Part shown: positions 13,646 through 44,541 of the stretch, piece by piece
Layout: each line of letters begins with the position of its first letter
How positions within the stretch are numbered: position 1 is the stretch's first letter
NCBI GenBank assembly: GCA_958295675.1
Contig: OY282360.1
Coordinates: 594,026 to 658,025, forward strand
Source: Minisyncoccota bacterium
Lineage (GTDB): Bacteria; Patescibacteriota; Minisyncoccia; Phycocordibacterales; JABAAK01
Direction: 5' to 3'
Length of the DNA stretch: 64,000 nucleotides
Translations under genes and position numbers: made by a program
Notes under the pieces: generated by a model
The model's input: only the letters and a program-made list of their open reading frames with translations
Databases searched by the model: none
What the model was told of the DNA's origin: nothing

Positions 13646-13876
13646 ATGGATATCGCATTCATCATACAGGCGGTGCAAGTCGTCAGTGCTGTGCTGCTTA
13701 TCATTGCCATACTTCTGCTTCGCAGTGAGGCAAGTGTCGGCGGCGCATTCGGCGGAGACAATATAACTGAAGGAGGCGGTGTACGGCGACGGGGTTCTGA
13801 GAAAATCATGTTTATCGGCACTGTGATCCTGGCAGTTGTATTCGTGGTAAGTATCGCTCTTCCGCTTGTTGTGTAA
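13646..13876 (+). CDS. secG: Preprotein translocase subunit SecG
   Basis: 76 aa with two TM helices flanking a Gly-rich loop (GGAFGGD...GGGVRRRG), the typical SecG layout. Confidence 0.55.
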   Translation: MDIAFIIQAVQVVSAVLLIIAILLLRSEASVGGAFGGDNITEGGGVRRRGSEKIMFIGTVILAVVFVVSIALPLVV

Positions 13877-13957
13877 TACAATATAAACATCCCGACAGAC
13901 ACTGTATACTAAGAGTGTGCGTGATACAATTATCGCATTTCACACTGCTATATTACA

Positions 13958-15700: not shown

Positions 15701-15705
15701 GCGGG

Positions 15706-17544
15706 ATGGCAATCGCAAGCAACTATACAATGGCAATCATAAACAGAAATACAATCAGAAGAAGGAACACCGCACGCGACAGACAATCGCCCGGACGACG
15801 CATGAAACAGCCGGAAAGAACAAGACAATCCGCACCGCAAAAGAAAAATTCCTTCATACCGAAACCAAGACCCGGTGAGATACGAACACTTATCCTCGGC
15901 GGAGTGTCAGAAATCGGTAAAAATATGTACGCTGTTGAGTACAACGATTCCATAGTAGTATTTGAATGCGGCACTATGTTCGGCGAAAGCACAACACCGG
16001 GTATCAGCACAATAATGCCGAATATAGAATATCTGAAAGAAAGGAAACAAAGCGTGCGCGCATTGGTGGTAAGCGATGCGTCAATGGCGCATATCGGTGC
16101 CATTCCGCACGCGATTCGCGATATCGGCAATCCGACCGTATACTGTCGCACGCTTACCAAAGCAGTTATTGAAAGATATCAGGAAACTGTACGACGCGCT
16201 CCCACGCCTTCATTCTATGAAGTGAAAAAATCAGAAACTGTAAAAATAGCGGATGACATACTGCTGCATTTTTTCGGCATCTCGGATGAAACACCCGGAA
16301 CACTTGGCATCATCATGGAAACAGAATCAGGATGCGTCGCATACACCGACGGCATGCGGGTAAAAAACACAAACGGAGTGGTTGAACCGAAAGAGGAAGA
16401 AAGATTTAAGGTCCTGAGAGAAAAAGAAGTGGTGCTCTCAATAGCGGGATCCGTCAATGCTGAGCGACCGGGGTTCTCTATGAGCGACAAAGAAATTGCG
16501 GAAAAAATAACGCACATCCTGAAAGAAGCACCGAATCGAACATTTCTCCCTCTCTTCCCTTCTCAAATACAGAGAAACGGATTGATTTTAGAAGCTGCTC
16601 TCAAACTCGGCAAAAAAATATTCGTACAAAGCGTATTCCTTCTGAAAAACCTGGAAACAGCATGCGATCTCGGTCTTATCTCAATACCGAAAGAGGCAAT
16701 CATTCCTATTGATGAACTTCAGAATGAAAGTGATGGCAGTAACGATCTTATCGTGCTGGGTGCCGCGGAAAATGAAGAGTACGACATGCTTGAGAAAATG
16801 TCACAGGAAGCGTACAGCCACACATCAGTAATGAAAGAGGATACAATGATATTCCCGTCCCCTGTTATTCCGACAAATGCGCGATCCACACAAAATCTCA
16901 AAGACCGTTTGTCCCGTCTCGGCGCGATAATTCAGTCATATGACACGAGCGATGTAAAGGCGAGTATTCATGCCGGTAAGGATGAATTGCATTGGATACA
17001 CCAGCGGGCAAATCCGAAGTACTTCATACCCGTTCAGGGGTACCACTACATGCTCACGGCACATACGCACATACTTCGCGATATCGGCATGTCTCCGGAC
17101 TCATGTGTGATTCCTGAAAACGGATCAATCATTGACATCAGTCAGGACAACAAGATAATCAAAAGACAAAAACAACGGCTGTCGGTATCACCGGTATCCG
17201 TGGACGGACATACCCCGACACTCGTGCATGATGTCGTGGTGCAGGACAGAAAAACACTCGCGCAGGAAGGGATACTCATCGTGGTAGTATTTATCAATCA
17301 AAAGAAACTTGAGCTCAGAAAATCACCCGATATTCTTTCCCGTGGTTTTATATATCTGAGAGAATCACGGGATCTTATCGCCCGTATTCGTCTCGTCATC
17401 AAAAAAGTCACGGAAAAAGAAGCGCAGGAACACGGAAAGGTTGATATAGATACGATGAAAAAAGCGATACAAAAAGAAGCGCAAAACTTTCTGGTGAACG
17501 AAACAAATAAAAAACCGATTATTATCCCTGTCATATTCACATAA
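15706..17544 (+). CDS. RNase J-like paralog with a degenerate metallo-beta-lactamase motif, probably catalytically impaired; basic N-terminal extension
   Basis: Co-linear with the downstream RNase J (MBL, beta-CASP and C-terminal domains). It has SDASMAHIGA where the canonical SHAHLDHIGG (HxHxDH) should be. The start at 15706 was chosen because it avoids overlap and sits after AGGA; the ORF-track start is a GTG at 15652. Confidence 0.7.
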   Translation: MAIASNYTMAIINRNTIRRRNTARDRQSPGRRMKQPERTRQSAPQKKNSFIPKPRPGEIRTLILGGVSEIGKNMYAVEYNDSIVVFECGTMFGESTTPGISTIMPNIEYLKERKQSVRALVVSDASMAHIGAIPHAIRDIGNPTVYCRTLTKAVIERYQETVRRAPTPSFYEVKKSETVKIADDILLHFFGISDETPGTLGIIMETESGCVAYTDGMRVKNTNGVVEPKEEERFKVLREKEVVLSIAGSVNAERPGFSMSDKEIAEKITHILKEAPNRTFLPLFPSQIQRNGLILEAALKLGKKIFVQSVFLLKNLETACDLGLISIPKEAIIPIDELQNESDGSNDLIVLGAAENEEYDMLEKMSQEAYSHTSVMKEDTMIFPSPVIPTNARSTQNLKDRLSRLGAIIQSYDTSDVKASIHAGKDELHWIHQRANPKYFIPVQGYHYMLTAHTHILRDIGMSPDSCVIPENGSIIDISQDNKIIKRQKQRLSVSPVSVDGHTPTLVHDVVVQDRKTLAQEGILIVVVFINQKKLELRKSPDILSRGFIYLRESRDLIARIRLVIKKVTEKEAQEHGKVDIDTMKKAIQKEAQNFLVNETNKKPIIIPVIFT

Positions 17545-17548
17545 CACT

Positions 17549-19435
17549 ATGAGAGAGAAAACGACAATTAAAAAAAGCGCGCCAGAGCAAAAAAAACAAT
17601 CAGCGACAACGGTGAAACAGAAAGCGAGCGAAAATGAAAAACAAAAAGTACCGCGAGGATTGTACCAAAAGCCAATTCGCCGTCAGGGCGGACTTATCGG
17701 ATCCCGGGAACTGACTATGGGTTCTGAAACAGAATCCACACTCACTATACCAAAACAGGAAAAAGGTTCTGTCCGTGTACTTTTCTTCGGCGGTGTCGGC
17801 GAAATAGGTAAAAACATGTACGCCATTGAACTTGAGGACGATATACTCATCATGGATTGCGGCCTTAAATTTTCTGAAGAAGACACGCCTGGTGTTGACT
17901 TCCTGGTGCCGAATGTGCAGTACCTCGAAGAAAGAAAAGAAAAAATACGAGGCATAGTTATTTCTCACGCTCACCTCGACCACATCGGCGGGATATCAGT
18001 ATTAATGGAAAAACTCGGAAACCCGCCGATATTCTCAAGAAGACTCAGTATTGAACTCATTAAAAACAGGCAGGGTGAATTTGAGAGTAAAGAGCCAATC
18101 GTCTACCACGAAGTTGAAAAAAACACTGTACTGAAACTGACTGAAAATCTGACACTGACCTTCTTCGCCGTTACACATACTATTCCCGACTCAATGGGCA
18201 TAATCATTGATACTCCGGCGGGAATAATCACTTTTACCGGCGATCTGAAACTGACACACATAGACGGTGTCGTCAGCAAGGAAGAAGAAAGCGAATTTTC
18301 CGTCTTCAAAAAGAAAAAAGTGCTGCTGACCATGGCAGATTCAACCAATGCGGACCGCCCCGGCTTTTCTCTGCCTGAAAGCAGGGTTATTGAAACAATC
18401 GGAAAAATTATACGCCAAACAAAAGGATGTATTATTCTTTCATCTTTCTCTTCACAGATAGAACGAACAATACAAGTTATTGAACATGCCATAGCGGACG
18501 GAAGAAAGGTGATCGTTCAAGGACGATCAATGATAACCAATCTTACCATCGCCTCAGGAATGGGATTATTAAAAATGCCTATGAGTTCCATCATACCGAT
18601 AGAAAAGATGGGTGATTACCCAAGAGAGAAAATATTGGTGCTTGCGACCGGCGCGCAGGGCGATAACTTCACCGCGCTTGACCGCATGTCCCGTGAAGCA
18701 CATCGACACATGAAACTCGGGCGGGATGATACTGTGGTCTTTTCATCATCGGTCATTCCCGGCAATGAAGAGCCGGTGCAGAACCTCAAGGACCGTCTGT
18801 CCCGCCTCGGCGTGAACCTTATCACATACCAAACAAGTGATGTTCACTCAAGCGGTCACGCGAATCGGGACGAGTTGAAGTGGATACACGAACACATCAA
18901 TGCGAAGTTTTTCCTGCCTATACACGGATACCACTACATGCTGTCAGCACACGCGCAGATTCTGCACGATATAGGCATGGCGGAGGAAAACACTGTACTT
19001 CCCGATAACGGATCAATAATTGATATCAGTCCGGACGGGAAAACAATAACAAAACAAGAGTACACCATGCCGACAAAACTGACTGTTGTGGACGGAAATG
19101 CCGTCGGCACGGTGCAAAACATCGTCCTCAGCGACCGAAAGATTTTGAAGGAAGACGGTATTTTTGTTGTTATTGTACTGATAAATCAAAGGAACAAAAG
19201 AGTAAAGAAGTCCCCCGACATCATATCCAGGGGTTTTATATATCTGAAAGAATCCCAACAAATAGTGAACAGGGCAAGATTTGTCGCAAAAAAATCAGCT
19301 GAACAAAATATGCAGCGAGGCAAATCAATCAATATTGAAAATTTGAAACGATCCATAAACAGGGAAATACAGAACTTCCTGTATTCCGAGACAAAAAAGC
19401 GACCGATCGTGATGTCTGTGGTGTATGTACAGTAA
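17549..19435 (+). CDS. rnj: Ribonuclease J (canonical HxHxDH intact)
   Basis: VISHAHLDHIGG motif, beta-CASP region, and an RNase J C-terminal domain. Confidence 0.85.
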   Translation: MREKTTIKKSAPEQKKQSATTVKQKASENEKQKVPRGLYQKPIRRQGGLIGSRELTMGSETESTLTIPKQEKGSVRVLFFGGVGEIGKNMYAIELEDDILIMDCGLKFSEEDTPGVDFLVPNVQYLEERKEKIRGIVISHAHLDHIGGISVLMEKLGNPPIFSRRLSIELIKNRQGEFESKEPIVYHEVEKNTVLKLTENLTLTFFAVTHTIPDSMGIIIDTPAGIITFTGDLKLTHIDGVVSKEEESEFSVFKKKKVLLTMADSTNADRPGFSLPESRVIETIGKIIRQTKGCIILSSFSSQIERTIQVIEHAIADGRKVIVQGRSMITNLTIASGMGLLKMPMSSIIPIEKMGDYPREKILVLATGAQGDNFTALDRMSREAHRHMKLGRDDTVVFSSSVIPGNEEPVQNLKDRLSRLGVNLITYQTSDVHSSGHANRDELKWIHEHINAKFFLPIHGYHYMLSAHAQILHDIGMAEENTVLPDNGSIIDISPDGKTITKQEYTMPTKLTVVDGNAVGTVQNIVLSDRKILKEDGIFVVIVLINQRNKRVKKSPDIISRGFIYLKESQQIVNRARFVAKKSAEQNMQRGKSINIENLKRSINREIQNFLYSETKKRPIVMSVVYVQ

Positions 19436-33006: not shown

Positions 33007-33169
33007 CCAGCAATATAAAAGAAATAATACTTGACAAGAAAAACTATATTATTTTATAAAAATAATATTGCCAGTACACATATATAATTGTATCGTATGT
33101 GGTATTATATAAATGGATGGTGTTACTGACACCTTGAACACTCAAACCAGACGGCAGGAGGAAAAAGCA

Positions 33170-33724
33170 ATGGCTTGCCGAATTACATGCATCCTTTTCC
33201 TTTCTTTCTTCTTCATCATCAGTTGCTCAACAACTGAAAACCGTGTCCGTGATGTGGAAAACCGTATCCGTGATGTGGAGAAGGAAGCAGAAAAGATAAT
33301 GGAGAACATAGCAATGGACATGGACTTCATAACAGAAACCTTTTGTAGGAACAAGGGGTTTCCGCAACACGACGCTTCAATAACGCTCGGTAGAAATGGC
33401 ATGATTATCAAAAACACTGATTTTCATGTCAATGGCAATATCTACCTTTGTGGGGATGATGCACTCGTCACGATAAAGGGGACACTGCAGGTACAACGCA
33501 TTTACCTGATTGGCAAACGCGTACGAGTGCAAGCAGAACAATTCATTCTGAGTGCACCGATTAGTCGATCGGTGTTTGTCGTTGAAGGCAGCGATGCCAT
33601 GATCATAACCGCTGATCAATTAACAGATCCGGCGGTATTACAAGCATGGCAAGAAAAATCTCCAAGACGTTATGGCGTCAACAACATCAAAATGAGACGA
33701 AAGTTCGTTCATTTCAACAGGTAG
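33170..33724 (+). CDS. Putative lipoprotein with short ENRVRDVE repeats
   Basis: Strong SD GGAGG. N-terminus MACRITCILFLSFFFIISCSTT, lipobox-like IISC. Bidirectional terminator downstream. Confidence 0.45.
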   Translation: MACRITCILFLSFFFIISCSTTENRVRDVENRIRDVEKEAEKIMENIAMDMDFITETFCRNKGFPQHDASITLGRNGMIIKNTDFHVNGNIYLCGDDALVTIKGTLQVQRIYLIGKRVRVQAEQFILSAPISRSVFVVEGSDAMIITADQLTDPAVLQAWQEKSPRRYGVNNIKMRRKFVHFNR

Positions 33725-33737
33725 AAGAATTCGCATA

Positions 33738-33780
33738 ACCCCCTTTTTTTACTTCAAGTGAGAAAAGGGGGGTTCTTTTG
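33738..33780. terminator. Bidirectional hairpin terminator (AACCCCCTTTTTTT...AAAAGGGGGGTT plus T-run)
   Basis: G/C-rich stem flanked by T/A runs on both sides. Sits between the lipoprotein gene (+) and the tRNA cluster (-). Confidence 0.5.
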
Positions 33781-33787
33781 TATCAAA

Positions 33788-33870
33788 GAAAACAGAGGAC
33801 TCGAACCTCCATGGGTTGCCCCACCGTCTCCTAAGACCGGCGCGTCTACCCGTGCCGTCAATCTTTGATT
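33788..33870 (-). pseudogene. tRNA-Leu-derived pseudo-tRNA fragment
   Basis: About 57 nt (part of the D-arm, anticodon arm, variable arm and T-arm) is near-identical to the adjacent tRNA-Leu(TAG). There is no complementary acceptor stem and the D-stem pairing is broken. Confidence 0.35.
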
Positions 33871-33910
33871 GATGCTGACAAGCAGTCGCCACAGGTGGCG
33901 GAAGTATCAG

Positions 33911-33992
33911 GTGCCGAGGAGAGGACTCGAACCTCCATGGGTTGCCCCACCGGTTCCTAAGACCGGCGCGTCTACCAATTCCGCCACCTCGG
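33911..33992 (-). tRNA. tRNA-Leu (anticodon TAG), long variable arm
   Basis: GCCGAGGTGGCGGAATTGGTAGACGC...CCGGTCTTAGGAACCGG...GGAGGTTCGAGTCCTC...CCTCGGCA. Anticodon loop CTTAGGA. Confidence 0.85.
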
Positions 33993-33997
33993 CATAG

Positions 33998-34070
33998 TCC
34001 GCCCACTAGGATTCGAACCTAGGACCCACCGGTTAAGAGCCGGTTGCTCTACCAACTGAGCTATGGGCGG
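33998..34070 (-). tRNA. tRNA-Lys (anticodon CTT)
   Basis: CCGCCCATAGCTCAGTTGGTAGAGC...ACCGGCTCTTAACCGGT...CTAGGTTCGAATCCTAG...TGGGCGGA. Anticodon loop CTCTTAA. Confidence 0.8.
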
Positions 34071-34244
34071 TAAGCACAGTAATACTATACAATAGAGCAC
34101 ATAAAAAATAAAAAAGATTTAAAAACTGAGTGTATTACAAAATCTAACCTATACACAAACTATACAATCACTCAATATTAAATCGTATGCATCCATCCAT
34201 TTAGCACTGAAAAACAGTTACCACGAAACGACAGGATCGCCGAG

Positions 34245-34327
34245 TGCCGGAGGCGGGAATCGAACCCGCACACCCCGAGGGTACACGATTTTAAGTCGTG
34301 AGCGTCTACCAATTCCGCCACTCCGGC
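34245..34327 (-). tRNA. tRNA-Leu (anticodon TAA), long variable arm
   Basis: GCCGGAGTGGCGGAATTGGTAGACGC...CACGACTTAAAATCGTG...GCGGGTTCGATTCCCGC...CTCCGGCA. Confidence 0.85.
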
Positions 34328-34397
34328 TTTATAAAATACTATAACACTTTGTACGAATCATATAGAATATATAAACTTACTTTCGGTTCTTTTAGAT

Positions 34398-34441
34398 TCT
34401 AAAAAAACAAACCCCACAGGAGCGAACTCCTGTGGGGGTTT
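34398..34441 (-). terminator. Rho-independent terminator downstream of secreted paralog A1
   Basis: AAACCCCACAGG..CCTGTGGGGGTTT hairpin with T-run on the minus strand. Confidence 0.55.
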
Positions 34442-34462
34442 GGGTTTGGTGAAGGCGACGAC

Positions 34463-35194
34463 CTACTCCGACGTGTTGAAGAACACATAGCCGGGGTTGG
34501 GTACACCATCAAGTGCCGCGGCTGCCCTGTTGGCAAGATCTCGCTCTGCAAGAGTCGCATCAACCTGAGCGGCAAGCATGGCGAGTCGCTCTTGATCAAG
34601 CCGCGCCATCTCAAGATTGGCGCCGTTGTCAAAGTCAGCCGAAACAGGGTCCTCCTGCTTGTGCGGGAAAGATTGCCCTTGGTCGGCACCGGTCGTCACA
34701 TCACCTACAGACCTGGCAACATGAGCTGCGAGAGCCCGCTCACCGGTGTTCTCAAGCAGCGCACTAGCGTTGATCTTGTCTCCGCCAACAATGTGCACTC
34801 CCGGAGGAGTGTCGAAGAGATCTTCTTCGGCAACAGACCGACGACCGTCAATCCACTCGATGGTCGCTACCCGAAGGGCATGGTTCCAACCGCGCGTTCC
34901 AGGGCGAACCCGGTACTTGGAGTCACTCAGATACGTACTCCAAGTCGCGGTGACATCACGAGCACTCACCCGATCCTGCGGACCAAGTTGCCGATTGCTG
35001 CCGGTCAGCGCGTAGATCGCGTTGGCGGTTTCCCGCGTGATCTTCGAAGAGCCGGACGGCACCTTGGAATCGAAAGAGACCGCGAGCTCGGTGTTGAGGG
35101 CAGAGATCGTTTGTGCCTTTCCGTAGTCCCCTTGCCCCGCAAAAGCGGTAGCACCGAAGAGAACGGCGATGAAAAGGAAAAGTAGTTTGCGCAT
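34463..35194 (-). CDS. Secreted protein, island family A (paralog A1)
   Basis: SD AAGGAG. Signal peptide MRKLLFLFIAVLFGATAFAGQ. Shares the IxGGDxIN...LENTGERALAAH...TTGADQ module with the other three paralogs. High GC. Confidence 0.6.
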   Translation of the reverse strand: MRKLLFLFIAVLFGATAFAGQGDYGKAQTISALNTELAVSFDSKVPSGSSKITRETANAIYALTGSNRQLGPQDRVSARDVTATWSTYLSDSKYRVRPGTRGWNHALRVATIEWIDGRRSVAEEDLFDTPPGVHIVGGDKINASALLENTGERALAAHVARSVGDVTTGADQGQSFPHKQEDPVSADFDNGANLEMARLDQERLAMLAAQVDATLAERDLANRAAAALDGVPNPGYVFFNTSE

Positions 35195-35559
35195 TTCAGC
35201 ACTCCTTTTGTTTACGGGGTAGGTTAAGTAAAACGGCTGAGTGAATCACTCTTCCGCTCTGTTTGGTAGATTAGAGAGATGTTACACACACGGTGTTGAA
35301 CTCCCAACCCTGCCCAAATCTACTGTGTAGTATAGAGAAAAAAATACTCTTGTCAAGACCACCCAAAGAATAGACAATAATAGATTATTATTTTATAATA
35401 AAACACACCTATACACACGATAAAATATGTGGTGTAGTGTATGGAATAGCATATACATAAAAAATCAATCCTCTATGAAAGTAAACTTCCATAGAGGATT
35501 GTGAGATCTCCTACTCCGCCGGTGCATCACCAGCAGGCATAGAACCACCGACTGCACGA
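35171..35559. repeat. 389-bp junction cassette, copy 1: 3' tail of gene B, terminator, AT-rich promoter region, SD, and first ~8 codons of gene A1
   Basis: Essentially identical to 36070-36456. Confidence 0.8.
35456..35501 (-). terminator. Rho-independent terminator inside junction cassette copy 1
   Basis: CAATCCTCTATG..CATAGAGGATTG 12-bp stem plus T-run on the minus strand, just after the gene B stop. Confidence 0.6.
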
Positions 35560-36092
35560 GCAACCGGATTGGTGCCGCCCAGTTCCCGCATCATGTCCCC
35601 GGCGGGGAAACATTGAGGCGTGCGCACGCTGCGATTGACGAGGAATTCAAAGTACCGCCGAGCCGTATCAAGTCTGGCCAAATCGGCACCACCCTCTATC
35701 AACTGCACAAACTCCTCAGCGCGCTTCTGCAGCACAAGCGGAGGAATCTCCGTGCCGCTGAGACAGGCCTTCACATCCTCGGTACTGGCATTTGCCATCC
35801 ACCGGGCATAGGCATCAAGCCCATCGTCAACGCGCTTGTAGATCGTGATCGCCCCACCGGAGTTCACGACGGCACCGAAGACGGCGTCATCTCCCACATT
35901 GCGAGCGGTGCCGTCGATTTCGGACCCTTGAACGATTTCCGCGCTGCCGCCGCGTTTTGCAACGGATTCGACCATCTTCGCCGCATCTGCGCTTTCCAGA
36001 ACGAACTGGAAACTGACAGTCGGTTCAGCAACCGCAGCAGTGCCAATGCCGAGAGAGAGAACGGCGGTGAAAAGGAAAAGTAGTTTGCGCAT
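35511..36092 (-). CDS. Secreted protein, island gene B. Shares its signal-peptide start and its GGSMPAGDAPAE C-terminal tail with paralog A2 via the cassette
   Basis: Signal peptide MRKLLFLFTAVLSLGIGTAAVA. Unique ~160-aa body. The 5' and 3' ends lie inside the repeated cassettes. Confidence 0.55.
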   Translation of the reverse strand: MRKLLFLFTAVLSLGIGTAAVAEPTVSFQFVLESADAAKMVESVAKRGGSAEIVQGSEIDGTARNVGDDAVFGAVVNSGGAITIYKRVDDGLDAYARWMANASTEDVKACLSGTEIPPLVLQKRAEEFVQLIEGGADLARLDTARRYFEFLVNRSVRTPQCFPAGDMMRELGGTNPVARAVGGSMPAGDAPAE

Positions 36093-36456
36093 TTCAGCAC
36101 TCCTTTTGTTTACGGGGTAGGTTAAGTAAAACGGCTGAGTGAATCACTCTTCCGCTCTGTTTGGTAGATTAGAGAGATGTTACACACACGGTGTTGAACT
36201 CCCAACCCTGCCCAAATCTACTGTGTAGTATAGAGAAAAAAATACTCTTGTCAAGACCACCCAAAGAATAGACAATAATAGATTATTATTTTATAATAAA
36301 ACACACCTATACACACGATAAAATATGTGGTGTAGTGTATGGAATAGCATATACATAAAAAATCAATCCTCTATGAAAGTAAACTTCCATAGAGGATTGT
36401 GAGATCTCCTACTCCGCCGGTGCATCACCAGCAGGCATAGAACCACCGGTCGTCAT
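36070..36456. repeat. 389-bp junction cassette, copy 2
   Basis: Near-identical to 35171-35559. Contains the 3' tail of A2, a terminator, a promoter region and the 5' start of gene B. Confidence 0.8.
36354..36399 (-). terminator. Rho-independent terminator inside junction cassette copy 2
   Basis: Same 12-bp hairpin and T-run as copy 1. Confidence 0.6.
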
Positions 36457-36948
36457 GTCATCTGCAGACCTGAGAACATGAGCTGCGAGAGCCCGCTCAC
36501 CGGTGTTCTCAACCCGCGCAGTAGGGTTGATCTTGTCTCCGCCAACAATGTGCAATCCCGGAGGAGTGTCGAAGAGATCTTCTTCGGCAACAGACCGACG
36601 ACCGTCAATCCACTCGATGGTCGCTACCCGAAGGGCATGGTTCCAACCGCGCGTTCCAGGGCGAACCCGGTACTTGGAGTCACTCAGATACGTACTCCAA
36701 GTCGCGGTGACATCACGAGCACTCACCCGATCCTGCGGACCAAGTTGCCGATTGCTGCCGGTCAGCGCGTAGATCGCGTTGGCGGTTTCCCGCGTGATCT
36801 TCGAAGAGCCGGACGGCACCTTGGAATCGAAAGAGACCGCGAGCTCGGTGTTGAGGGCAGAGATCGTTTGTGCCTTTCCGTAGTCCCCTTGCCCCGCAAA
36901 AGCGGTAGCACCGAAGAGAACGGCGATGAAAAGAATTACATTACGCAT
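36409..36948 (-). CDS. Secreted protein, island family A (paralog A2); chimera of the A1 body with the gene B C-terminal tail
   Basis: Residues ~8-150 identical to A1; DNA 36470-36925 near-identical to 34715-35170. The C-terminus switches to ...TTGGSMPAGDAPAE, the same tail as gene B. Own SD AAGGAG. Confidence 0.55.
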   Translation of the reverse strand: MRNVILFIAVLFGATAFAGQGDYGKAQTISALNTELAVSFDSKVPSGSSKITRETANAIYALTGSNRQLGPQDRVSARDVTATWSTYLSDSKYRVRPGTRGWNHALRVATIEWIDGRRSVAEEDLFDTPPGLHIVGGDKINPTARVENTGERALAAHVLRSADDMTTGGSMPAGDAPAE

Positions 36949-37085
36949 GTATGTCTCCTTGTAAGTTAGTTAATAAGGATGGAAGGGTCTCAAAGTATGG
37001 ATGAGTACTACCCTTCAACATCCAACCCTAAAAAGATTTTAGCAAATAAAATATGAATTGTCAACTACAGTAGTATATAAATTTC

Positions 37086-37131
37086 AAAAAGACAAAAATA
37101 AACCCTGTGGGATGTGTATCCCACAGGGTTT
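37086..37131 (-). terminator. Rho-independent terminator downstream of paralog A3
   Basis: AAACCCTGTGGGAT..ATCCCACAGGGTTT hairpin plus T-run on the minus strand. Confidence 0.55.
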
Positions 37132-37143
37132 AACAACCAACCA

Positions 37144-38376
37144 CTAGCGATCGCTCTCGCCGCAGTAAACGACTGAATCTACCCGTTCACCATCAGAGTT
37201 AGTATACGATCTTGTACACAAACGCTGTGTGTAAACAGATTCCCTCCTCATCGTCATAGGGTTAAAATCGCTTGCTACACTGATGTCAACCTTACACGCC
37301 TTCGGATTACTTTCAACAACGAGTCCCACAACTGTGGAGTCGTCGTTTATGTTAAGTGCCTGCATCTGATCTACTGAAACGGAGTAAGCGCTCCCACAGA
37401 CACGAATCGGATTTTTCCGAAGATCACCGATAAAGCGACTCAAGGACATCTGATCAGTCCAACGTATATACAGTCGACATTGTTTTTCTTCTGTATTGAC
37501 AAGCGCACCGATGACCTTACCGTTGTTGCCTCTATTAGCGATAACGCTATCGTTCATGACAACATTGTAAGAGTCCCGACAAAATTCAATCAATGGATTG
37601 TTGACGGAGGGTTTGCGACTGATTTCCGCTACAGCTGCAACAACAGCACTCTCACCATCATTTGCAACAATGGTGTTTGCTATACTGTGCCCGCCAACAA
37701 TGATCAAATGAGATCCACTCTCTGAATCAGTAAGTGAACTTTTAGCAGACAAGATGTGTTCTAGCACAGCATCAATCCCAACATCACCACCAAGTCCATC
37801 AAAAACTGAAGTTCTCTTAGGCAGATATGTAGGTTGAGCATCAGAACCTGATCGCGGCTGATCAGCACCAGTCGTCACATCTCCAGCCCTGAAAATATGA
37901 GCTGCGAGAGCCCGCTCACCGGTGTTCTCAAGCTGCGCAGTAGAGTTGATCCGATCTCCGCCAATAATGGTCAGTTTTGGAGGGGGTTTGAGGAGATCTG
38001 CTTCAGCAGTAGCGTGAAAACTCATCGCCCATTGCACGATGGCCCTACGGGCGTCGGAGTCCAGTCGCCTGGATCCAGGATTCACATCCGTGAACCCCTG
38101 ATTGCGAAGGAAGGAAGTCAAAAGAGAAAATGTGTCCTCTTTTCGGAACCGCTGATCACTAGTCAACGGTTCCATACCCGCAAGGGTACGGACAGCATTC
38201 GCTGTTTCACGGCTGACAACGGGAGACCCTGCCTGAACAGACGGATCCACGAACTCAGACAGTGCTGTGTTGAGGACGCTTATCGCTCCTCGATTGCCAA
38301 CATCGTTAGCAACTGCGGCAGGACCGCTGAGAGCCATAGCGAATGCTACGGCGAAAGAGAGAATTGCTTTACGCAT
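37144..38376 (-). CDS. Secreted protein, island family A (paralog A3), with an internally duplicated GG-x-I-x-T...G-E-x-A module and a Cys-containing C-terminal domain
   Basis: SD GGAGG, 9 nt before the ATG at 38376. Signal peptide MRKAILSFAVAFAMALSGPAAVA. Motifs LTIIGGDRINSTAQLENTGERALAAHIF and LIIVGGHSIANTIVANDGESAVVAAV. Confidence 0.55.
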   Translation of the reverse strand: MRKAILSFAVAFAMALSGPAAVANDVGNRGAISVLNTALSEFVDPSVQAGSPVVSRETANAVRTLAGMEPLTSDQRFRKEDTFSLLTSFLRNQGFTDVNPGSRRLDSDARRAIVQWAMSFHATAEADLLKPPPKLTIIGGDRINSTAQLENTGERALAAHIFRAGDVTTGADQPRSGSDAQPTYLPKRTSVFDGLGGDVGIDAVLEHILSAKSSLTDSESGSHLIIVGGHSIANTIVANDGESAVVAAVAEISRKPSVNNPLIEFCRDSYNVVMNDSVIANRGNNGKVIGALVNTEEKQCRLYIRWTDQMSLSRFIGDLRKNPIRVCGSAYSVSVDQMQALNINDDSTVVGLVVESNPKACKVDISVASDFNPMTMRRESVYTQRLCTRSYTNSDGERVDSVVYCGESDR

Positions 38377-38535
38377 TTGTTGCTCCTCCAATAAAAACCA
38401 AATTTCCACATGTAAGATGGAAATCCCTATTTATATAATAACACTTTATTTGTAAAAGTCAAATAATAAAAAAGAGAGCGCTGCTTGCATATTTCAGCAA
38501 ACAACGCTCTTGAGAAGTCCGGCTAGACAGGTTGT

Positions 38536-39522
38536 CTAAATCGAAGCTTGCCGAAGCAGAGGCGCAGACGGCACACCTCTCAGTCCAAGTGTCTTCAAAA
38601 AGTCAAGAGGAATACCGGCGAACAAAAAACTTCCCGGATTCAGGTAGTTATCTTCCAAGCGTCCGCCGCCTGATCTCTCAGCTCTGTGTTCCCATCCCTC
38701 TATGACATACGGAATGGTGAGACAGTAGTCAAACGCTATGTCCCACTCCACATTCTGCAGATTTGTCACGCAAGTCCCGGAATCTACCCGCTCGTACCCG
38801 TCAACAGGACCGGAGATCGCTCGACGAATGACAGGGTTATCTCCACCGCTAAATGCAGCAAGGTACTTCTGCGCAAGACGATCCCTCTCTTCCATACCTG
38901 GTTTGGCAAAGAACATTTCGTAGTTCCGTCCTGCTCTTACCACCTTCTGATGCCACTTCAAGACGACGCATCTATAGGCATGCCTATAGTCATCCGTCAG
39001 CGGATTACTCACAATTGGCCTCCGAAAACCAGAAGATGTTGAGTACCATCCTTGAGAAGATGTATCAAGGGAAAGGTCAACACGAACAATCTCCGGACAA
39101 GCCGGTGGCATACCAATCGGTTGCAACCCTACATCCTCTAAAACAGCTGCTGCTGGTACAACTTCTGCCAAAGGAATGTCTTTCGGAAGAGGTGGGAGTT
39201 GGAGTGAAGGTGGAGTAACGGCAACGGTGTGATGCTCACGCACCACATCAAACTGATTGGCGAACAGCATGATCACCAACAGAACCAGACCAGTGATCAC
39301 CGCAATGACCACTGACTTCCGATTGCGTTCCCACCAAGTCAGATGACGGGGCCGATACGGTTGCCGTCGTCGGTTTTGGTGTTGGTTTCTACGACCACCA
39401 CCAGGTCTGACGACAATTTGGGGGGGTCTGGTATATGCCTTGTACACCACACACCCCAAGCCCACTACTGCAAGTGTCACCAATAGAAGCACTACGATGA
39501 CGACAATTTGAAAAAAATCCAT
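38536..39522 (-). CDS. Two-TM membrane protein with an Arg-rich cytoplasmic loop and a ~250-aa extracytoplasmic domain
   Basis: Strong SD AAGGAGG. TM1 IVVIVVLLLVTLAVVGLGCVV. Loop RPGGGRRNQHQNRRRQPYRPR. TM2 VVIAVITGLVLLVIMLF. Confidence 0.5.
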   Translation of the reverse strand: MDFFQIVVIVVLLLVTLAVVGLGCVVYKAYTRPPQIVVRPGGGRRNQHQNRRRQPYRPRHLTWWERNRKSVVIAVITGLVLLVIMLFANQFDVVREHHTVAVTPPSLQLPPLPKDIPLAEVVPAAAVLEDVGLQPIGMPPACPEIVRVDLSLDTSSQGWYSTSSGFRRPIVSNPLTDDYRHAYRCVVLKWHQKVVRAGRNYEMFFAKPGMEERDRLAQKYLAAFSGGDNPVIRRAISGPVDGYERVDSGTCVTNLQNVEWDIAFDYCLTIPYVIEGWEHRAERSGGGRLEDNYLNPGSFLFAGIPLDFLKTLGLRGVPSAPLLRQASI

Positions 39523-39651
39523 GTGCTTTCCTCCTTATGAAACAAAACAGATTTCCAAATATAGTATACAATAAAATAAAAAATAATGCAAGTATTGCCC
39601 TTCTCCGACCTCATTTTAACATTGATTTCCGCTTAAAGCTAATTCTGTACT

Positions 39652-40290
39652 CTATTCATCCGTCCTTTTTATCCATTCATCAATTAGGCTATTCTTTGTT
39701 GAAGGATCAGAGTCTTTATACTGTTCAGATATCTGACTCAATTGCGCAATTGCAGTACTTTGCTGTGCAGGTGATAAACTACGCAAATGAGTAATTGCAG
39801 CACTTTGGTGTGCTGAAGATAGACTATTCCAATGTGTAACGGAACTTCCAAGATGAGCAAGTGAACCTGGTACTTGGTGGACAACCGAACCAGCAGCAGG
39901 AGATCCACGAGGCAGGCGTAAAGATTCAATATTGGTATTTCCTGCGTTTCCGGGACCACCACTACCTGAACCGAGTAAAATAAGTCCTAAAAAGTATACA
40001 AGACCCCAAATGCTGGTCAGGACAAAAATGGCAAGCAGTCCCCAAAATATCTTCTTTTTTGCTTCATCTAAACCCTCTTTACCTCCTCCGGTATTCAAAA
40101 TAAAGGTCGCAAGATTCCAAAAGAAAAAAAGAAAGGCACAACCAACCGCAATTATAACCAGCAAATTTACAATGTTTATAAAACTAGAAAGAATATTAAT
40201 AATCCTGCCCACTTCCGCAGCGGCGGTCTGCGCAGATGCAATAGGTGCTGCTAGTATGCCGATACAAGAGAGTACAATATACGATGCCAT
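39652..40290 (-). CDS. Pilin-like small membrane protein P1 (VirB2/TrbC-like layout) with a Ser/His/Leu-rich repetitive C-terminal extension
   Basis: Signal peptide MASYIVLSCIGILAAPIASAQT. TM FLFFFWNLATFIL. Loop NTGGGKEGLDEAKKK. TM IFWGLLAIFVLTSIWGLVYF. Paralogous to P3. Confidence 0.5.
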   Translation of the reverse strand: MASYIVLSCIGILAAPIASAQTAAAEVGRIINILSSFINIVNLLVIIAVGCAFLFFFWNLATFILNTGGGKEGLDEAKKKIFWGLLAIFVLTSIWGLVYFLGLILLGSGSGGPGNAGNTNIESLRLPRGSPAAGSVVHQVPGSLAHLGSSVTHWNSLSSAHQSAAITHLRSLSPAQQSTAIAQLSQISEQYKDSDPSTKNSLIDEWIKRTDE

Positions 40291-40394
40291 ATACGAGAAG
40301 TATACTATATAGACATAACAAGAATGTTGGTTATAAACAAAAAATTATGACCGTAACAGTGGGATAAACCACTGCTACGGTCATGGAATGTGCG

Positions 40395-41261
40395 CTAAAG
40401 CGCAACAAGCTGATACAGGTCAGATGTCATCACGATGGGTTGTCCGCCGCGCAGCAATGCAGTGCACGCGCGAGAGTAGACATTCCCTCCGTCCGTCTGT
40501 GCCGGCAGGTGAGAAATACAATCACGAACCGTGATCTCCTCATCACCCATCACAATGCTGCCAGCAACAGAAGGCATCTCGGCAAGGTTGTATGCGAGTG
40601 ATGCGTTGTATGCGCACCACGTTGCTGCAGGATACACACGAACACCGCCGCGCCTGAGATCAACAACATGCTGAGCACTTGGCGGTTGGCTTGCATACCG
40701 ATCGCAAGCGTTTTCCGACGCGCCAAACATCGTCGCAACCGGAGCTCCGACGAAATCAGCCACATCGTCCCGCTGCTGGTAGGTGAAAGCACCAACCAAC
40801 ACAAGAACGGCACCGGTGGTGGCCCAGCTAACGCGTGGCCACTGACCGAAAACACGGCGAACTACGCCGGTTACGCCGGAAACAGCACCTCGCACAGCAC
40901 GGCGAACTACGCCGGCTACGCGGGAAACAGTACCTCGCACAGCACTCCACACCTTCCCGGAAGCAGTGGCGACACCGCTGCCGAAACGGGAAAACAGACC
41001 GGGCTGCTGCTCTTGAGCGGCGGCGTCTACTGCGGCCGTTGCCGTTGCGGTCTGCGGCTGCGGATCTTGAGCACCCGCTGCTGCGGGCTGCTGCTCTTGA
41101 GCGTCTACTGCGGCCGTTGCGGTCTGCTCGGGCTGCTGCTCTTGAGCGTCTACTGCAGCCGTTGCGGTCTGCTCGGGCTGCTGCTCTTGATCGGTGTCGG
41201 CATCTGCTGGCAAAAACTTCCCTTGCGCATCGCGTCGCTGACCGTTACCATTTTCACTCAT
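40395..41261 (-). CDS. Repeat-containing membrane protein: acidic QQPEQTATAAVDA repeats, a basic VRGxVS repeat region, one TM helix, and a Cys-containing extracytoplasmic domain
   Basis: Very GC-rich ORF. 45-bp tandem DNA repeats encode the EQQPEQTATAAVDAQ units. Confidence 0.5.
   Translation of the reverse strand: MSENGNGQRRDAQGKFLPADADTDQEQQPEQTATAAVDAQEQQPEQTATAAVDAQEQQPAAAGAQDPQPQTATATAAVDAAAQEQQPGLFSRFGSGVATASGKVWSAVRGTVSRVAGVVRRAVRGAVSGVTGVVRRVFGQWPRVSWATTGAVLVLVGAFTYQQRDDVADFVGAPVATMFGASENACDRYASQPPSAQHVVDLRRGGVRVYPAATWCAYNASLAYNLAEMPSVAGSIVMGDEEITVRDCISHLPAQTDGGNVYSRACTALLRGGQPIVMTSDLYQLVAL
41010..41215. repeat. 45-bp coding tandem repeat, about 3.5-4.5 copies (VNTR-like)
   Basis: GGGCTGCTGCTCTTGAGCGTCTACTGC[G/A]GCCGTTGCGGTCTGCTC recurs head-to-tail with minor variants. 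Confidence 0.7.
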
Positions 41262-41464
41262 CGCTTTCTCCTTCGGTTAAATGGAAATGAACCTGACTCT
41301 ACAAATAAAGCCAGAACCAGTACACAAGATACCATAAACAATCAAAACACGCAACTATACAAGAAATATTGTTTAATATACTGTATATTAAACAATATTA
41401 TAACGAAAATATGCAGTATTTATAGGATAATTTTACTATTTTCCTGATTGACTACCTCAATGTG

Positions 41465-41779
41465 CTACCTCAAAAATTGATACTCAGCAAACTGTATGTG
41501 CTCCTTTTTATTCAACTGCTGATCCGACTGAGATAAGCGGGCAACAAAGGAAAAAAGGGTATAAATTGAGAATATAATAAAAATACCAAGAATAATGATG
41601 CTCAAATTCTTGAACATACCGCCCCGTTTTTCCGCGGCATCAGCATTGGCGACAAATCGAACTGCAGTCACAATCAGCAGCAACAAGGCAATGAATGCCA
41701 TAGCGGCAATGAGCGGATCTACGATATTGTTAAACAAACTGTTTGCAACACCGCTTGCTGTTACTGCATAGACAATCAT
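41465..41779 (-). CDS. Pilin-like small membrane protein P2
   Basis: 104 aa. Leader, TM IAAMAFIALLLLIVTAV, loop RFVANADAAEKRGGMFKN, TM LSIIILGIFIIFSIYTLF. Confidence 0.45.
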   Translation of the reverse strand: MIVYAVTASGVANSLFNNIVDPLIAAMAFIALLLLIVTAVRFVANADAAEKRGGMFKNLSIIILGIFIIFSIYTLFSFVARLSQSDQQLNKKEHIQFAEYQFLR

Positions 41780-41835
41780 ACAGTAGTATAGTATACAAGA
41801 TTACAAAAAATAGAAAACAATTATGGTGTTTATGT

Positions 41836-42273
41836 CTACTTAGTAGTGTTTCCTTTTTGATTAAATGTTACACCAGGCACTTTAATCTCATTTATATTTG
41901 CATCAGTACCTGCACCAACACCAAAGATAGAACGCACAAATGTAATAAGACCCCATAGCGAAGTTATCACGACCATAGCAAGAACCCCCCACAACATATT
42001 TGCTTTTGCTTTTGCTTTTGCATCTTCATCACTCTTCAAAACAAACATTGCAAGATTAAAAAAGAAAAACAAAAAGGCAAGTGACACAACAACAATGGTT
42101 GATGTGCCGACAAGACCGCCGACAGCACCGACACTATCGGTAAGCTGATCCAAAGGATTCTCAGTATCAACCTTCGGCGTTTGAGCAAGAACACTTGTCA
42201 TGCCAAGAACCGCAGTAAGCCCAACGGCAAATAATAAAGTACTAACTGACTGAATAGATTGTGATAGTTTCAT
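41836..42273 (-). CDS. Pilin-like small membrane protein P3
   Basis: Signal peptide MKLSQSIQSVSTLLFAVGLTAVLGMTSVLAQT. TM FLFFFFNLAMFVL. Loop KSDEDAKAKAKAN. TM MLWGVLAMVVITSLWGLITF. Confidence 0.5.
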   Translation of the reverse strand: MKLSQSIQSVSTLLFAVGLTAVLGMTSVLAQTPKVDTENPLDQLTDSVGAVGGLVGTSTIVVVSLAFLFFFFNLAMFVLKSDEDAKAKAKANMLWGVLAMVVITSLWGLITFVRSIFGVGAGTDANINEIKVPGVTFNQKGNTTK

Positions 42274-42398
42274 ATACTATGGTAATAAAGTAAGTAATTA
42301 TTTTCTTTTCTCAGGTAATCGGATACTGTAAGAACACTGTTAGTATACTATTTCGCCATACACACAAAAAAATACTGTGGATAACTTCTGATTGTACT

Positions 42399-42779
42399 TT
42401 ATGCGGAAAAGAGGATGCGCAATACCGCTATAATTCCCCACAGCGTGAAAACCAGTAACAAAATAATGACCGGATACCACAACCGCTTCACTGCCAACTC
42501 AGCCATATTTTTACTGCCGCCATGCGTCTCTTTGATGTAGACAACGATACCATACACAAAAACCAAAAATAACACCGTTATCGCCAGTGGAATCAGCGTG
42601 CCGCCAACAACTTTGATAATCGTATCAACAAGTTCTCTCAACGATAGTTTTTTAAAAGGGAAAAAAGAGGAGTCAGCAGCATACGATACCAACGGCACAA
42701 CAAGCAGAACCGCAGAGGACACAACACCGACTAGCGGTGCCCATCTCCATGTCCATTGATTGCTTCCCATGCACTTCAT
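42399..42779 (-). CDS. Pilin-like small membrane protein P4
   Basis: Signal peptide. TM LIPLAITVLFLVFVYGIVVYI. Loop KETHGGSKNMAELAVKRL. TM WYPVIILLLVFTLWGIIAVL. 4-nt overlap with P5. Confidence 0.45.
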   Translation of the reverse strand: MKCMGSNQWTWRWAPLVGVVSSAVLLVVPLVSYAADSSFFPFKKLSLRELVDTIIKVVGGTLIPLAITVLFLVFVYGIVVYIKETHGGSKNMAELAVKRLWYPVIILLLVFTLWGIIAVLRILFSA

Positions 42780-43261
42780 ATAATGTTATGAGTACCGGAA
42801 GATACGCTGATGAGTGGATTATCGGGACCATTGTCATTATATAACGATGTCGCTTCGGGTTCGCTGTCCTTCAGCACCTGATTAACCGTGTTTTGTATTA
42901 CACTCAGAATGCCTTTTATGCCTAATACAATAAACAGACCGATAAAAGCAATGACAAGGGACCTTTTTAATTCAGCAAATTTTTCCGGCTTGGACGCACC
43001 TGCCAAGACCATCTGAAAACCAATATACACAATTGCAACCGTCATAATCGGTATAAGGATGAGTGTAACAGCATCTAATATGCGCAAGAGAAGTTCTGTC
43101 AAACTGTTAGATGTGATAGGGTTACATAAAATTTTTCCTGTTTCACATCCGGTTTCCGCAACAGCAGGTGTTTCCGCAACAGCAGGTATAGCGTAAAGCA
43201 TAAAAACAACCGAGGTTATACAAAGAACACAGTACGCGGTTAGCGATGATATGCGTTTCAT
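42776..43261 (-). CDS. Pilin-like small membrane protein P5
   Basis: Signal peptide MKRISSLTAYCVLCITSVVFMLYAIPAVAE. Cys pair. TM LILIPIMTVAIVYIGFQMVL. Loop AGASKPEKFAELKRS. TM LVIAFIGLFIVLGIKGIL. Confidence 0.45.
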   Translation of the reverse strand: MKRISSLTAYCVLCITSVVFMLYAIPAVAETPAVAETGCETGKILCNPITSNSLTELLLRILDAVTLILIPIMTVAIVYIGFQMVLAGASKPEKFAELKRSLVIAFIGLFIVLGIKGILSVIQNTVNQVLKDSEPEATSLYNDNGPDNPLISVSSGTHNII

Positions 43262-43278
43262 ACATCATGCAGTATACA

Positions 43279-44541
43279 TCACCGAAACAGATTCAAGACA
43301 GTTTTTGCGCCGGTTTCCGCGGTCTGTGTTCCGACCACAACTCCCTGAAGAGTTTGCAACAGAGTTTCTAGTTCCTCTGAAGTCAAATACACACTTCTGC
43401 TTGAGAACAAGGAATCAATAAAAACTCGTTCAGTTGCTGTTGATTCATTGTCCGGATAGTACCATTTCACTGCCGGCGGCAGAGAGAACAGTTCGGAAAT
43501 ATCATTATCTTTATCATACAAAACACCGAGCATATCAAGCAATACCGCCAATGCCGCCTCCGGTGCCCTGCTCCGCTTCGGAACCGCGAACGCGTAGAGT
43601 GTTGACGGTGTTACTGCTATGCCATTCCGGTCAAATTGCGGCAACGGTGCGACCCGAACAGGAATATTCGGATTTGCGCGCTGCAGTTCATGAAATTCGC
43701 TGATATAGCCGGGATACAGAAAAAGGTTGCCGCCCGTGAACATATCACGAGCATCGGCATGCGCGACACTCCAGGTGTATACCGACGAACGGGGATGAGC
43801 GAAACTGGCATAAAACCTAAGAATGTCCCTCGCTGAACGCTCCGTCAAACCGATATCCGACTCCCGCACCTGCAGTATGAGCGCGGCAAAAAGATCCGCA
43901 GCATGGCGATAATTGCCATATGCGCCGAGCGGTATCAATGCCTGCGATGTATCACGGTACCGTTCGTTAACCTTCAAAAACGAACCGGCTGACAACTGTG
44001 ACCACTCGGTCGGCAATGCGCGAATACCGTTCCGCAATCGCATATTCTCATTGTAATAAAGCACCATCGCATCCGAGAAAAACGGTATGGCAACATAACC
44101 GTCATTGGGACGAATAAACAAATTTGCCGGCTGAATAAAGGTTTGCTCGTACCGCGCTAAGGGAAAGTAAGAAAACGGAACGGTCTGCAAGGTATCCTCA
44201 AGAGCAAAAATTGTATGGTGGTCAATGAGGAGCAGATCCGGCTGTCTGCCGACCGCGATTGCTCCTATGTACTCATCCTGTATGGTATCAGGATTCTTTT
44301 CAACATATCTGACATTCCCGTACAGCCGATCAGAAAAATTGCTTAAACGCCGAGCAATCGGAGCTATCTCACGAATATCAATGGTACCCCACACTAAAAT
44401 ATCCACCGTCTGAGTCCGTGTGGATTGATCATCTGCTGCTCTTTTTTTTAAAAAACCGTATGCCGCCAAACTCCCGAATCCGACAAGAATAAACACACCG
44501 AAAACAACATACAGTATGAGTTGAAAACTTTTTGCCTCCAT
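43279..44541 (-). CDS. N-terminally membrane-anchored extracellular solute-binding-like protein (SBP family 1-like)
   Basis: TM anchor then ~390 aa with periplasmic-binding-protein-like segments. No cognate ABC permease or ATPase is adjacent. Confidence 0.45.
   Translation of the reverse strand: MEAKSFQLILYVVFGVFILVGFGSLAAYGFLKKRAADDQSTRTQTVDILVWGTIDIREIAPIARRLSNFSDRLYGNVRYVEKNPDTIQDEYIGAIAVGRQPDLLLIDHHTIFALEDTLQTVPFSYFPLARYEQTFIQPANLFIRPNDGYVAIPFFSDAMVLYYNENMRLRNGIRALPTEWSQLSAGSFLKVNERYRDTSQALIPLGAYGNYRHAADLFAALILQVRESDIGLTERSARDILRFYASFAHPRSSVYTWSVAHADARDMFTGGNLFLYPGYISEFHELQRANPNIPVRVAPLPQFDRNGIAVTPSTLYAFAVPKRSRAPEAALAVLLDMLGVLYDKDNDISELFSLPPAVKWYYPDNESTATERVFIDSLFSSRSVYLTSEELETLLQTLQGVVVGTQTAETGAKTVLNLFR

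Follow-up and report, generated by a model that had tools for sequence, protein, structure and literature searches.

How do neighbouring genes whose protein bodies are unrelated come to share almost identical beginnings and ends? The question is raised by a group of small genes in a 64,000-nucleotide stretch of DNA (the window) from a Minisyncoccota bacterium (GenBank assembly GCA_958295675.1, contig OY282360.1, positions 594,026 to 658,025 of the forward strand). The genes, all on the minus strand and in the order C, A2, B, A1, are followed by three tRNA genes. The genome measures about 0.72 Mb, and the group closes off a row of VirB2-like pilin genes at its far end. The four appear to be a tandem array in which each gene is transcribed separately and encodes a small Sec-exported protein, and we consider it likely that the array has been shaped by unequal crossing-over and gene conversion, i.e., by concerted, birth-and-death evolution, within an orphan family of secreted proteins.

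All products of the array carry predicted Sec-type signal peptides. Gene C (37144-38376; 410 amino acids from the ATG at 38376) combines its Sec signal with an A-type N-terminal four-helix domain, a motif segment, and a C-terminal extension of 230 amino acids. Gene A2 (36409-36948; 179 amino acids) is a truncated, chimeric paralogue made of a signal peptide, an A body, and a B-type tail of 12 codons, the body being fused in frame to the tail at a 5-nt overlap, CGGTG. Gene B (35511-36092; 193 amino acids) joins a Sec signal to a second body type and contains, at residues 50-84, a motif related to the segment found in A and C. Gene A1 (34463-35194; 243 amino acids) encodes the full-length A protein, whose native tail ends in GYVFFNTSE. 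Only two body types are present in the window, and the A domain is continued in three different ways, by 230 amino acids in C, 75 in A1, and 12 in A2.

Two Direct Repeats Link Neighbouring Genes

Self-BLAST of the region together with a repeat finder defined two direct repeats, R1 and R2, whose offsets are given within the window and which are the only large near-identical repeats across its 64 kb. R1 (35158-35550 and 36056-36448; offset 898) is 393 bp long and 99.7% identical. Its sole mismatch, at 35169/36067, lies in the codon that reads Ile9 in one gene and Thr9 in the other. The copy at the A2/B junction (36056-36448, minus strand) carries tail codons and a stop codon, a terminator, a promoter, a leader, the sequence AAGGAG, and the first 12 codons of B; that at the B/A1 junction (35158-35550, minus strand) carries the terminator, the promoter, AAGGAG, and the first 12 codons of A1. 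R2 (34687-35176 in A1 and 36444-36933 in A2, both on the minus strand; offset 1757) spans 490 bp with 11 mismatches (97.8% identity). All repeats are direct; inverted repeats reported by the repeat finder are limited to the terminator hairpins and one 20-nt pair of 75% identity.

The mismatches in R2 are distributed very unevenly. The 5' 366 nt (36568-36933 in A2) are identical in A1 and A2, and all 11 differences fall within the 3' 124 nt (36444-36567), a distribution that by our own arithmetic would arise by chance with a probability of (124/490)^11, or about 3e-7. Because the differences are confined in this way, A1 and A2 read as mosaics, in which an older stretch diverged by 9% stands beside a freshly homogenised one. 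Two tracts are thus very recent: R1, where a single position in 393 bp differs, and the first 366 bp of R2, where all positions agree. A codon comparison classified ten of the R2 changes between A1 and A2 as non-synonymous and one as synonymous.

The initial annotation of this DNA had placed the repeats at 35171-35559/36070-36456 and 34715-35170/36470-36925. These are the same repeats, near-identical and real, with ends that were off by 9-28 nt. It had also described A2 as an A body joined to the B tail, had taken the products to be secreted, and had listed the parts of the junction. All of this agrees with our analysis, except that the shared tail comprises 12 codons instead of about 16.

Each Gene of the Array Has Its Own Expression Signals

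Read along the minus strand, R1 runs from the tail codons and stop codon of the upstream gene through a hairpin and T-run, a promoter, a leader, and AAGGAG to the start codons of the next gene. Its upstream-gene part consists of the final 12 codons, GGSMPAGDAPAE, and the stop codon. The terminator that follows (35466-35501 and 36364-36399) is a hairpin with a perfect 12-bp core (16 pairs including one G-T) and a T-run. The promoter, TTGACA-N16-TATACT (35329-35356 and 36227-36254), represents a motif with exactly two occurrences in the 64 kb, where none is expected. It is followed by a leader of about 130 nt (35195-35322 and 36093-36220, minus strand) and by AAGGAG placed 7 nt ahead of the ATG (36100-36105 for B; 35202-35207 for A1). 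R1 ends in the 12 start codons MRKLLFLF(I/T)AVL, i.e., its boundary falls inside the signal-peptide codons.

The other ends of the array are equipped in the same way. A2 has a promoter of its own, TTGACA-N17-TAAAAT with a TG before the second hexamer (37036-37064, minus strand), in the region upstream of the gene (region U), and a leader of about 85 nt. Terminator hairpins on the minus strand follow C (37099-37132) and A1 (CCCCACAGGAGTTCGCTCCTGTGGGG, 34412-34437). Hence C, A2, B, and A1 each have, as predicted from sequence, their own promoter with -35/-10 match, Shine-Dalgarno sequence AAGGAG, ATG, and terminator. Because every gene of the array is so equipped, we regard the four as complete monocistronic units, none of which is a silent cassette.

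A Related Locus Has the Same Design and a Different Gene Order

Only one relative of the locus was found. It lies on the contig ERZ19488997:contig_1 of the European Nucleotide Archive (ENA), contains a C homologue, and is referred to below as L081. DNA flanking the array is 94-95% identical between the window and L081. The gene order in L081 is D, C, truncated A (181 amino acids), A (245 amino acids), B (183 amino acids), A, B, tRNAs, G, and MurA. The array C-A2-B-A1 of the window is thus matched by C-truncated A-A-B-A-B, with a difference in both copy number and order. The A-B unit of L081 forms a 1812-bp tandem duplication with 99.95% identity.

The truncated A gene of L081 matches the full A gene over 520 bp, the first 427 nt being identical and the last 93 nt containing eight mismatches. 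The same mosaic pattern is therefore seen in both genomes (0/366 nt, then 11/124 nt in the window; 0/427 nt, then 8/93 nt in L081). In both, the truncated A directly follows C, and both truncated genes depart from the A sequence at the same alignment point, into a GG(S/G) tail. Since their upstream regions are orthologous (region U is 82% identical to the DNA upstream of the L081 truncated A), A2 and the truncated A of L081 appear to correspond by position. The tail of the L081 gene bears a weak resemblance to the L081 B tail (z 2.75, versus 0.25 for the A tail). As the truncated A holds the same position in L081, the A2 chimera is probably not new. We infer that a gene consisting of an A body and a B-type 3' end already existed before the two genomes separated, and that neighbouring genes have overwritten it time and again since then.

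Promoter, leader, Shine-Dalgarno sequence, and start align across all eight junctions of the two genomes. Common blocks of this alignment include TAGATTTGGG and AATCTACCAAAC, AAGGAG, and the start ATGCG(C/T)AA. The front module of all array genes in both genomes can accordingly be written as TTGACA-N16/17-TATACT, a leader of about 130 nt, AAGGAG, ATGCG(C/T)AA, and a hydrophobic signal-peptide start; A2 departs from it in having TAAAAT as the second hexamer and a leader of about 85 nt. Within L081, about 216 bp of the module are 97% identical between the copies upstream of A and upstream of B. The R1 spacer resembles the B-to-A spacer of L081 in being longer and in containing a comparable AT-rich block.

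Terminators show a more varied picture. The hairpin after C is conserved in L081. The core of the A1 hairpin, CCCCACAGGAGTTCGCTCCTGTGGG, is found in the window after A1 and recurs in L081 after each of the five A/B-type genes (12093-12118, 13091-13116, 13865-13890, 14863-14888, and 15637-15662), with G, A, or T as the last base. The R1 terminator (CAATCCTCTATGGAAG...) is found in the window only, and not in L081.

The leader of about 130 nt is kept between A and B genes and between the genomes, although the bodies are only 34-35% identical; its L081 counterparts lie at 12208-12321 and 13170-13283. No Rfam family was detected in junction or leader. Leader folding was no better than that of shuffled sequences (z -1.3 to -1.4), and the alignment contained no compensatory pairs; one leader hairpin (GAGTG/CACTC versus GAGTT/AACTC) may carry a compensatory change. 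A search of the metagenome collection with the leader DNA pattern returned three unrelated chance matches.

A Segment of 39 Residues Is Homogenised within Genomes

A second kind of within-genome likeness is seen at the end of the A domain. Here, a segment of 39 residues (VHIVGGDKINASALLENTGERALAAHVARSVGDVTTGADQ in A1; 34688-34810 in A1, 36445-36567 in A2, and 37866-38008 in C) is 74% identical between A and C in the window and 66% identical in L081, and orthologues from the two genomes share only 24-29% of its residues. The rest of the A domain behaves in the reverse way: C orthologues are 59% identical, versus 34-46% for A against C. The synonymous divergence (dS) between A and C of the window is 0.24-0.29 in the segment and about 2.5 elsewhere in the domain. 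Because dS is low there, the resemblance exists at the DNA level and not in the protein only. Indeed, when the C segment (37866-38008, minus strand) is compared with the 3' end of the A body, about 81% of the nucleotides agree, and the shared stretch makes up an older tract common to C, A2, and A1. The low dS and the within-genome likeness together point to gene conversion.

The motif at residues 50-84 of B is related to the A/C segment (hhalign E value 3.5e-5), and a possible second copy of the motif is seen in C near residue 225. The motif of the L081 B protein is closer to A and C of the window (16/36 identical) than to A and C of L081. The idea that motif variants had been swapped between A/C and B across the two genomes proved only half true and was dropped.

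The Array Is the Divergence Peak of an Island

The array belongs to a hyper-divergent island of about 10 kb (33100-43300 in the window, 5000-17200 in L081) that lies between conserved MurA and SBP/GyrA and holds G, the tRNAs, A1, B, A2, C, D, E, F, and four small VirB2-like pilin genes. Amino acid identities between the window and L081, mostly taken from codon alignments, are 99.8% for GyrA (dS 0.09), 97% for MurA (dS 0.12), and 96% for SBP (dS 0.13). Inside the island they are 82-84% for pilin, 76-78% for D, 67-71% for E, 57-69% for F, 50-54% for G, 44-47% for C, and 34-35% for both A and B. The dS of A and of B, about 1.5 in each case, exceeds that of the flanks (about 0.1) more than 10-fold, which makes the array the divergence peak of the island; towards the pilin side, divergence declines gradually. 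These values suggest that the island alleles either greatly predate the rest of an otherwise shared genome or entered it by import. They also agree with the comparison that the initial annotation drew with surface and effector loci, since genes of that type are expected to stand out from their surroundings by much higher divergence, as this locus does.

Pilin-like genes lie directly upstream of the array, as four small genes at 41465-43261 and the gene for a pilin-domain protein, E, at 39652-40290. The four encode a row of small two-helix proteins, of which the one at 42776-43261 matches T4SS_pilin/TrbC and the other three were judged by likeness only. In E (212 amino acids), the T4SS_pilin domain scores slightly under the Pfam cut-off (24.6 versus 26.6 bits). 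Together, 41465-43261 and 39652-40290 appear to form a VirB2-like pilin array such as Patescibacteria have been reported to carry.

Several neighbours contain tandem repeats. F (40395-41261; 288 amino acids in the window, 341 in L081) has two 45-nt tandem repeats, at 40853-40945 and 41078-41190, that code for a region rich in Q, E, T, and A. G (33113-33724, plus strand), a signal-peptide or membrane protein, has a 21-nt tandem repeat at 33236-33279 (ENRVRDV/ENRIRDV). A 126-bp tandem repeat built from part of tRNA-Leu(tag) is present at 33794-33993 in the window and at 16048-16507 in L081; the window has one full and one partial copy of this tRNA gene, and L081 has four tRNA-Leu(tag)-like calls. 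The tRNA repeats create spurious open reading frames (ORFs) of 85 amino acids in the window and 211 in L081. Elsewhere, 16891-17169 and 18779-19057 show 68% DNA similarity within the adjacent long ORFs 15652-17544 and 17549-19435, which are probably an old tandem paralogue pair.

A, B, and C Make Up an Orphan Family

Word-indexed homologue searches returned only the genome's own proteins and one C homologue. In a full hidden Markov model (HMM) search of 1.84 billion representatives, the A domain was found in just two genomes; three extra matches, to repetitive proteins, were sums of weak matches and are regarded as spurious. Nothing was found when the A profile was run against the genome collection or against the metagenome collection. 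With MurA as a synteny anchor, species representatives were at most 62% identical, the best all being Patescibacteria (Paceibacteria, Yanofskybacteria, and similar), and genes A to G were encoded at none of the 80 MurA-anchored loci. A1, A2, B, and C have no Pfam match, hence no T4SS_pilin (PF18895) or TrbC/VirB2 (PF04956) domain. By these searches, A, B, and C appear to constitute a previously unseen orphan family of secreted proteins.

A Probable History of Ordinary Homologous Recombination

Because the front module is shared and the A bodies are paralogous, ordinary homologous recombination has long direct repeats to act on; exchanges between copies of the module or between bodies would lead to deletion, duplication, or conversion. 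R1 may have been placed before B when two copies of the module crossed over unequally in a truncated A-A-B-A array, with the loss of one A copy. The partners would have been the module ahead of the first A and the module ahead of B, with A2-B-A1 as the product. Such a single-crossover history fits because the R1 spacer is like the B-to-A spacer of L081 and because R1 ends within signal-peptide codons. Alternatively, R1 could have arrived ahead of B by gene conversion. In either case, its left edge would lie at the CGGTG microhomology. A separate conversion tract would have homogenised the first 366 bp of A1 and A2.

What concerted evolution would be expected to leave behind is what the two loci contain, namely mosaic tracts of near-identity, a within-genome likeness that includes synonymous sites, and changes in copy number and order. 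The variation would be slow and expressed at the population level, and not a programmed switch. The A, B, and C proteins would act at the cell surface, on a host cell or another outside partner, under diversifying pressure.

Several points weigh against this interpretation. Two genomes are too few to fix the exact order of events, and both the copies and the slow rate rest on the assembled sequence of these two. The excess of non-synonymous changes between A1 and A2 (10/11) is suggestive and alone not significant (about 0.16 under neutrality by our own arithmetic). Island dS is raised along with the non-synonymous divergence (dN); because dS is raised too, old or imported alleles would explain the divergence at least as well as positive selection. 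Finally, A, B, and C gave no sequence match in Pfam, NCBIfam, PADLOC, or the Protein Data Bank (PDB) that would point to a function.

The patescibacterial lifestyle is one of attachment to other microbes, and next to nothing is known about the proteins through which this contact is made or specified. A, B, and C may reasonably be proposed as strain-specific host-interaction factors, because they are encoded at the most diverged spot between genomes that are 94-95% identical, are reshuffled, and have as neighbours the pilin genes of a secretion system whose importance for epibiotic life has been reported. Of particular interest is the 39-residue segment, which is uniform within a genome and completely different between strains. 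The locus also illustrates that genes are still being remodelled by homologous recombination when the genome is as small as about 0.72 Mb.

Alternative Explanations

The strongest competitor of slow concerted evolution is programmed high-frequency variation, in which RecA would use R1 and R2 as a contingency switch and deletion, amplification, or conversion would generate subpopulations of cells displaying different sets of A- and B-type exported proteins. Exchange between the R1 copies would cause B to be lost or amplified (898 bp); exchange between the R2 copies would delete 1757 bp, so that a single full-length A gene remained under the A2 promoter. The repeats are indeed long, near-perfect, direct, and located exactly at gene boundaries, and all products would stay in frame; moreover, gene number and order vary between close relatives, and the proteins are exported and fast-diverging. 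Were this correct, the contingency locus would enable an obligate episymbiont to follow changes in host surface or defence, and the 39-residue segment would be a partner-recognition element. However, any pair of direct repeats recombines at some rate, and the repeats alone do not reveal design. No silent copies are present, each gene having its own promoter and terminator, and there are two body types only. A donor store was likewise not seen, no further copy of R1, A, or B occurring within the 64-kb window; no recombinase or reverse transcriptase family was detected among the genes scanned in the island and flanks, and long inverted repeats are absent. We therefore consider a contingency locus unlikely. 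The initial annotation had compared the array to cassette systems for surface or antigenic variation; of this comparison, recombination and gene conversion among paralogues are retained, and a dedicated cassette system is not, for the reasons just given.

A polymorphic toxin/immunity locus is less probable still. Here, the A-type proteins would be toxins with a constant N-terminal delivery domain and swappable ends, B would be protective, and A2 would be a displaced orphan. The three different C-terminal ends of the A domain would suit such a system, as would the alternation of A and B as pairs in L081 and the truncated copy that heads the array in both genomes. The A-then-B order, though, occurs in L081 and not in the window, and B has its own signal peptide as well as a motif in common with A. 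The N-terminal domain is among the most diverged parts (35% identity between the genomes), which is the opposite of what polymorphic toxins show. No toxin, immunity, or defence family was matched (orphan sequences could still hide a new toxin), and no marker domain of a delivery system was found.

Only slightly further down the scale is the improbable case of an assembly artefact, in which collapsed or duplicated strain variants from a metagenome were joined. The source is apparently an uncultured organism, repeats of 400-500 bp at 98-100% identity are of the type mishandled by short-read assemblers, and the same origin is conceivable for the perfect 1812-bp duplication in L081. Yet each repeat copy is bordered by its own sequence on either side and can be told from its partner (1 mismatch in R1, 11 in R2), and reading frame and full expression signals are kept at all junctions. 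The independently assembled related genome has the same design, down to the truncated A after C, and the single contig of 724,510 bp suggests a finished assembly.

A diversity-generating retroelement, with the 3' 124-nt cluster of A2 as a variable repeat copied from an A1 template, would account for mismatches that cluster at the 3' end of a short exported-protein gene and alter an amino acid in 10 of 11 cases, but is ruled out for practical purposes by the substitution pattern, which is mixed (G/T, G/C, T/G, C/G, C/T, T/C, G/A) and not confined to the adenines of one copy, by the equal change of both copies relative to C, and by the lack of a reverse transcriptase among the scanned island and flank genes.

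Comparison with Known Systems

Recombining families of exported proteins are known from several bacteria. In Helicobacter pylori, babA/babB/babC (and sabA/sabB) have near-identical 5' and 3' ends and divergent middles; chimeras arise by RecA-dependent gene conversion, and all copies are potentially expressed. The array described here is similar to bab/sab in its alike ends, in chimeras that would stem from gene conversion, and in the potential expression of all copies. Unlike the bab genes, which occupy dispersed loci, it is tandem, and its common 3' part amounts to only 12 codons and the terminator.

The Vlp, Vsp, and Vsa systems of Mycoplasma are found in small genomes and place a conserved promoter, 5' untranslated region (UTR), and signal peptide before variable bodies. 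They switch by promoter slippage or by recombinase-driven site-specific inversion, and their products are lipoproteins with internal repeats. The small genome and the single conserved front module ahead of variable bodies are shared with our locus, where, in contrast, none of the switching features, lipoproteins, or internal repeats was seen. Marks of site-specific inversion or a shufflon, as in Mycoplasma vsa/vsp and in Bacteroides, are also missing, there being no recombinase in the scanned genes and no flanking inverted repeat sites.

In Neisseria pilE/pilS, Borrelia vlsE, and Anaplasma msp2, one expression site is served by many promoterless donors. As in these systems, gene conversion would move segments between paralogues for exported proteins; unlike them, every copy here is predicted to be a full gene, and the window holds no donor store.

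Closer parallels come from Patescibacteria themselves, which commonly carry arrays of variable VirB2-like pilins and Sec-secreted proteins (PMC12102498), the latter including the 'Sec secreted array' of McLean et al. (2020), as cited there. The initial annotation had called the modular layout unexpected in a streamlined genome, which is overstated given that such arrays had already been reported as common (PMC12102498). Our locus shares with them the phylum, the neighbourhood, and small, variable exported proteins. It is set apart from the reported pilin arrays, whose members are at most 54% identical (PMC12102498), by tracts of 98-100% identity and by the lack of pilin domains in A, B, and C.

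The same work compares the patescibacterial arrays with the Bartonella Trw locus (PMC12102498), in which the trwL pilin gene and the trwJIH genes are tandemly amplified and subject to concerted evolution and diversifying selection (Nystedt et al., 2008, as cited in PMC12102498). The two loci agree in three respects: tandem, direct paralogues of exported or surface components stand beside pilin genes of the type IV secretion system (T4SS); recombination tracts make paralogues more alike within than between genomes; and copy number changes between relatives. They differ in that A, B, and C are not recognisable T4SS parts, that the host is a Patescibacterium with a tiny genome, and that two unrelated body types alternate behind one promoter/leader/signal-peptide module. 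The mechanism itself is ordinary, and the locus is of a familiar kind, a fast-evolving surface-protein locus, occupied by a new protein family.

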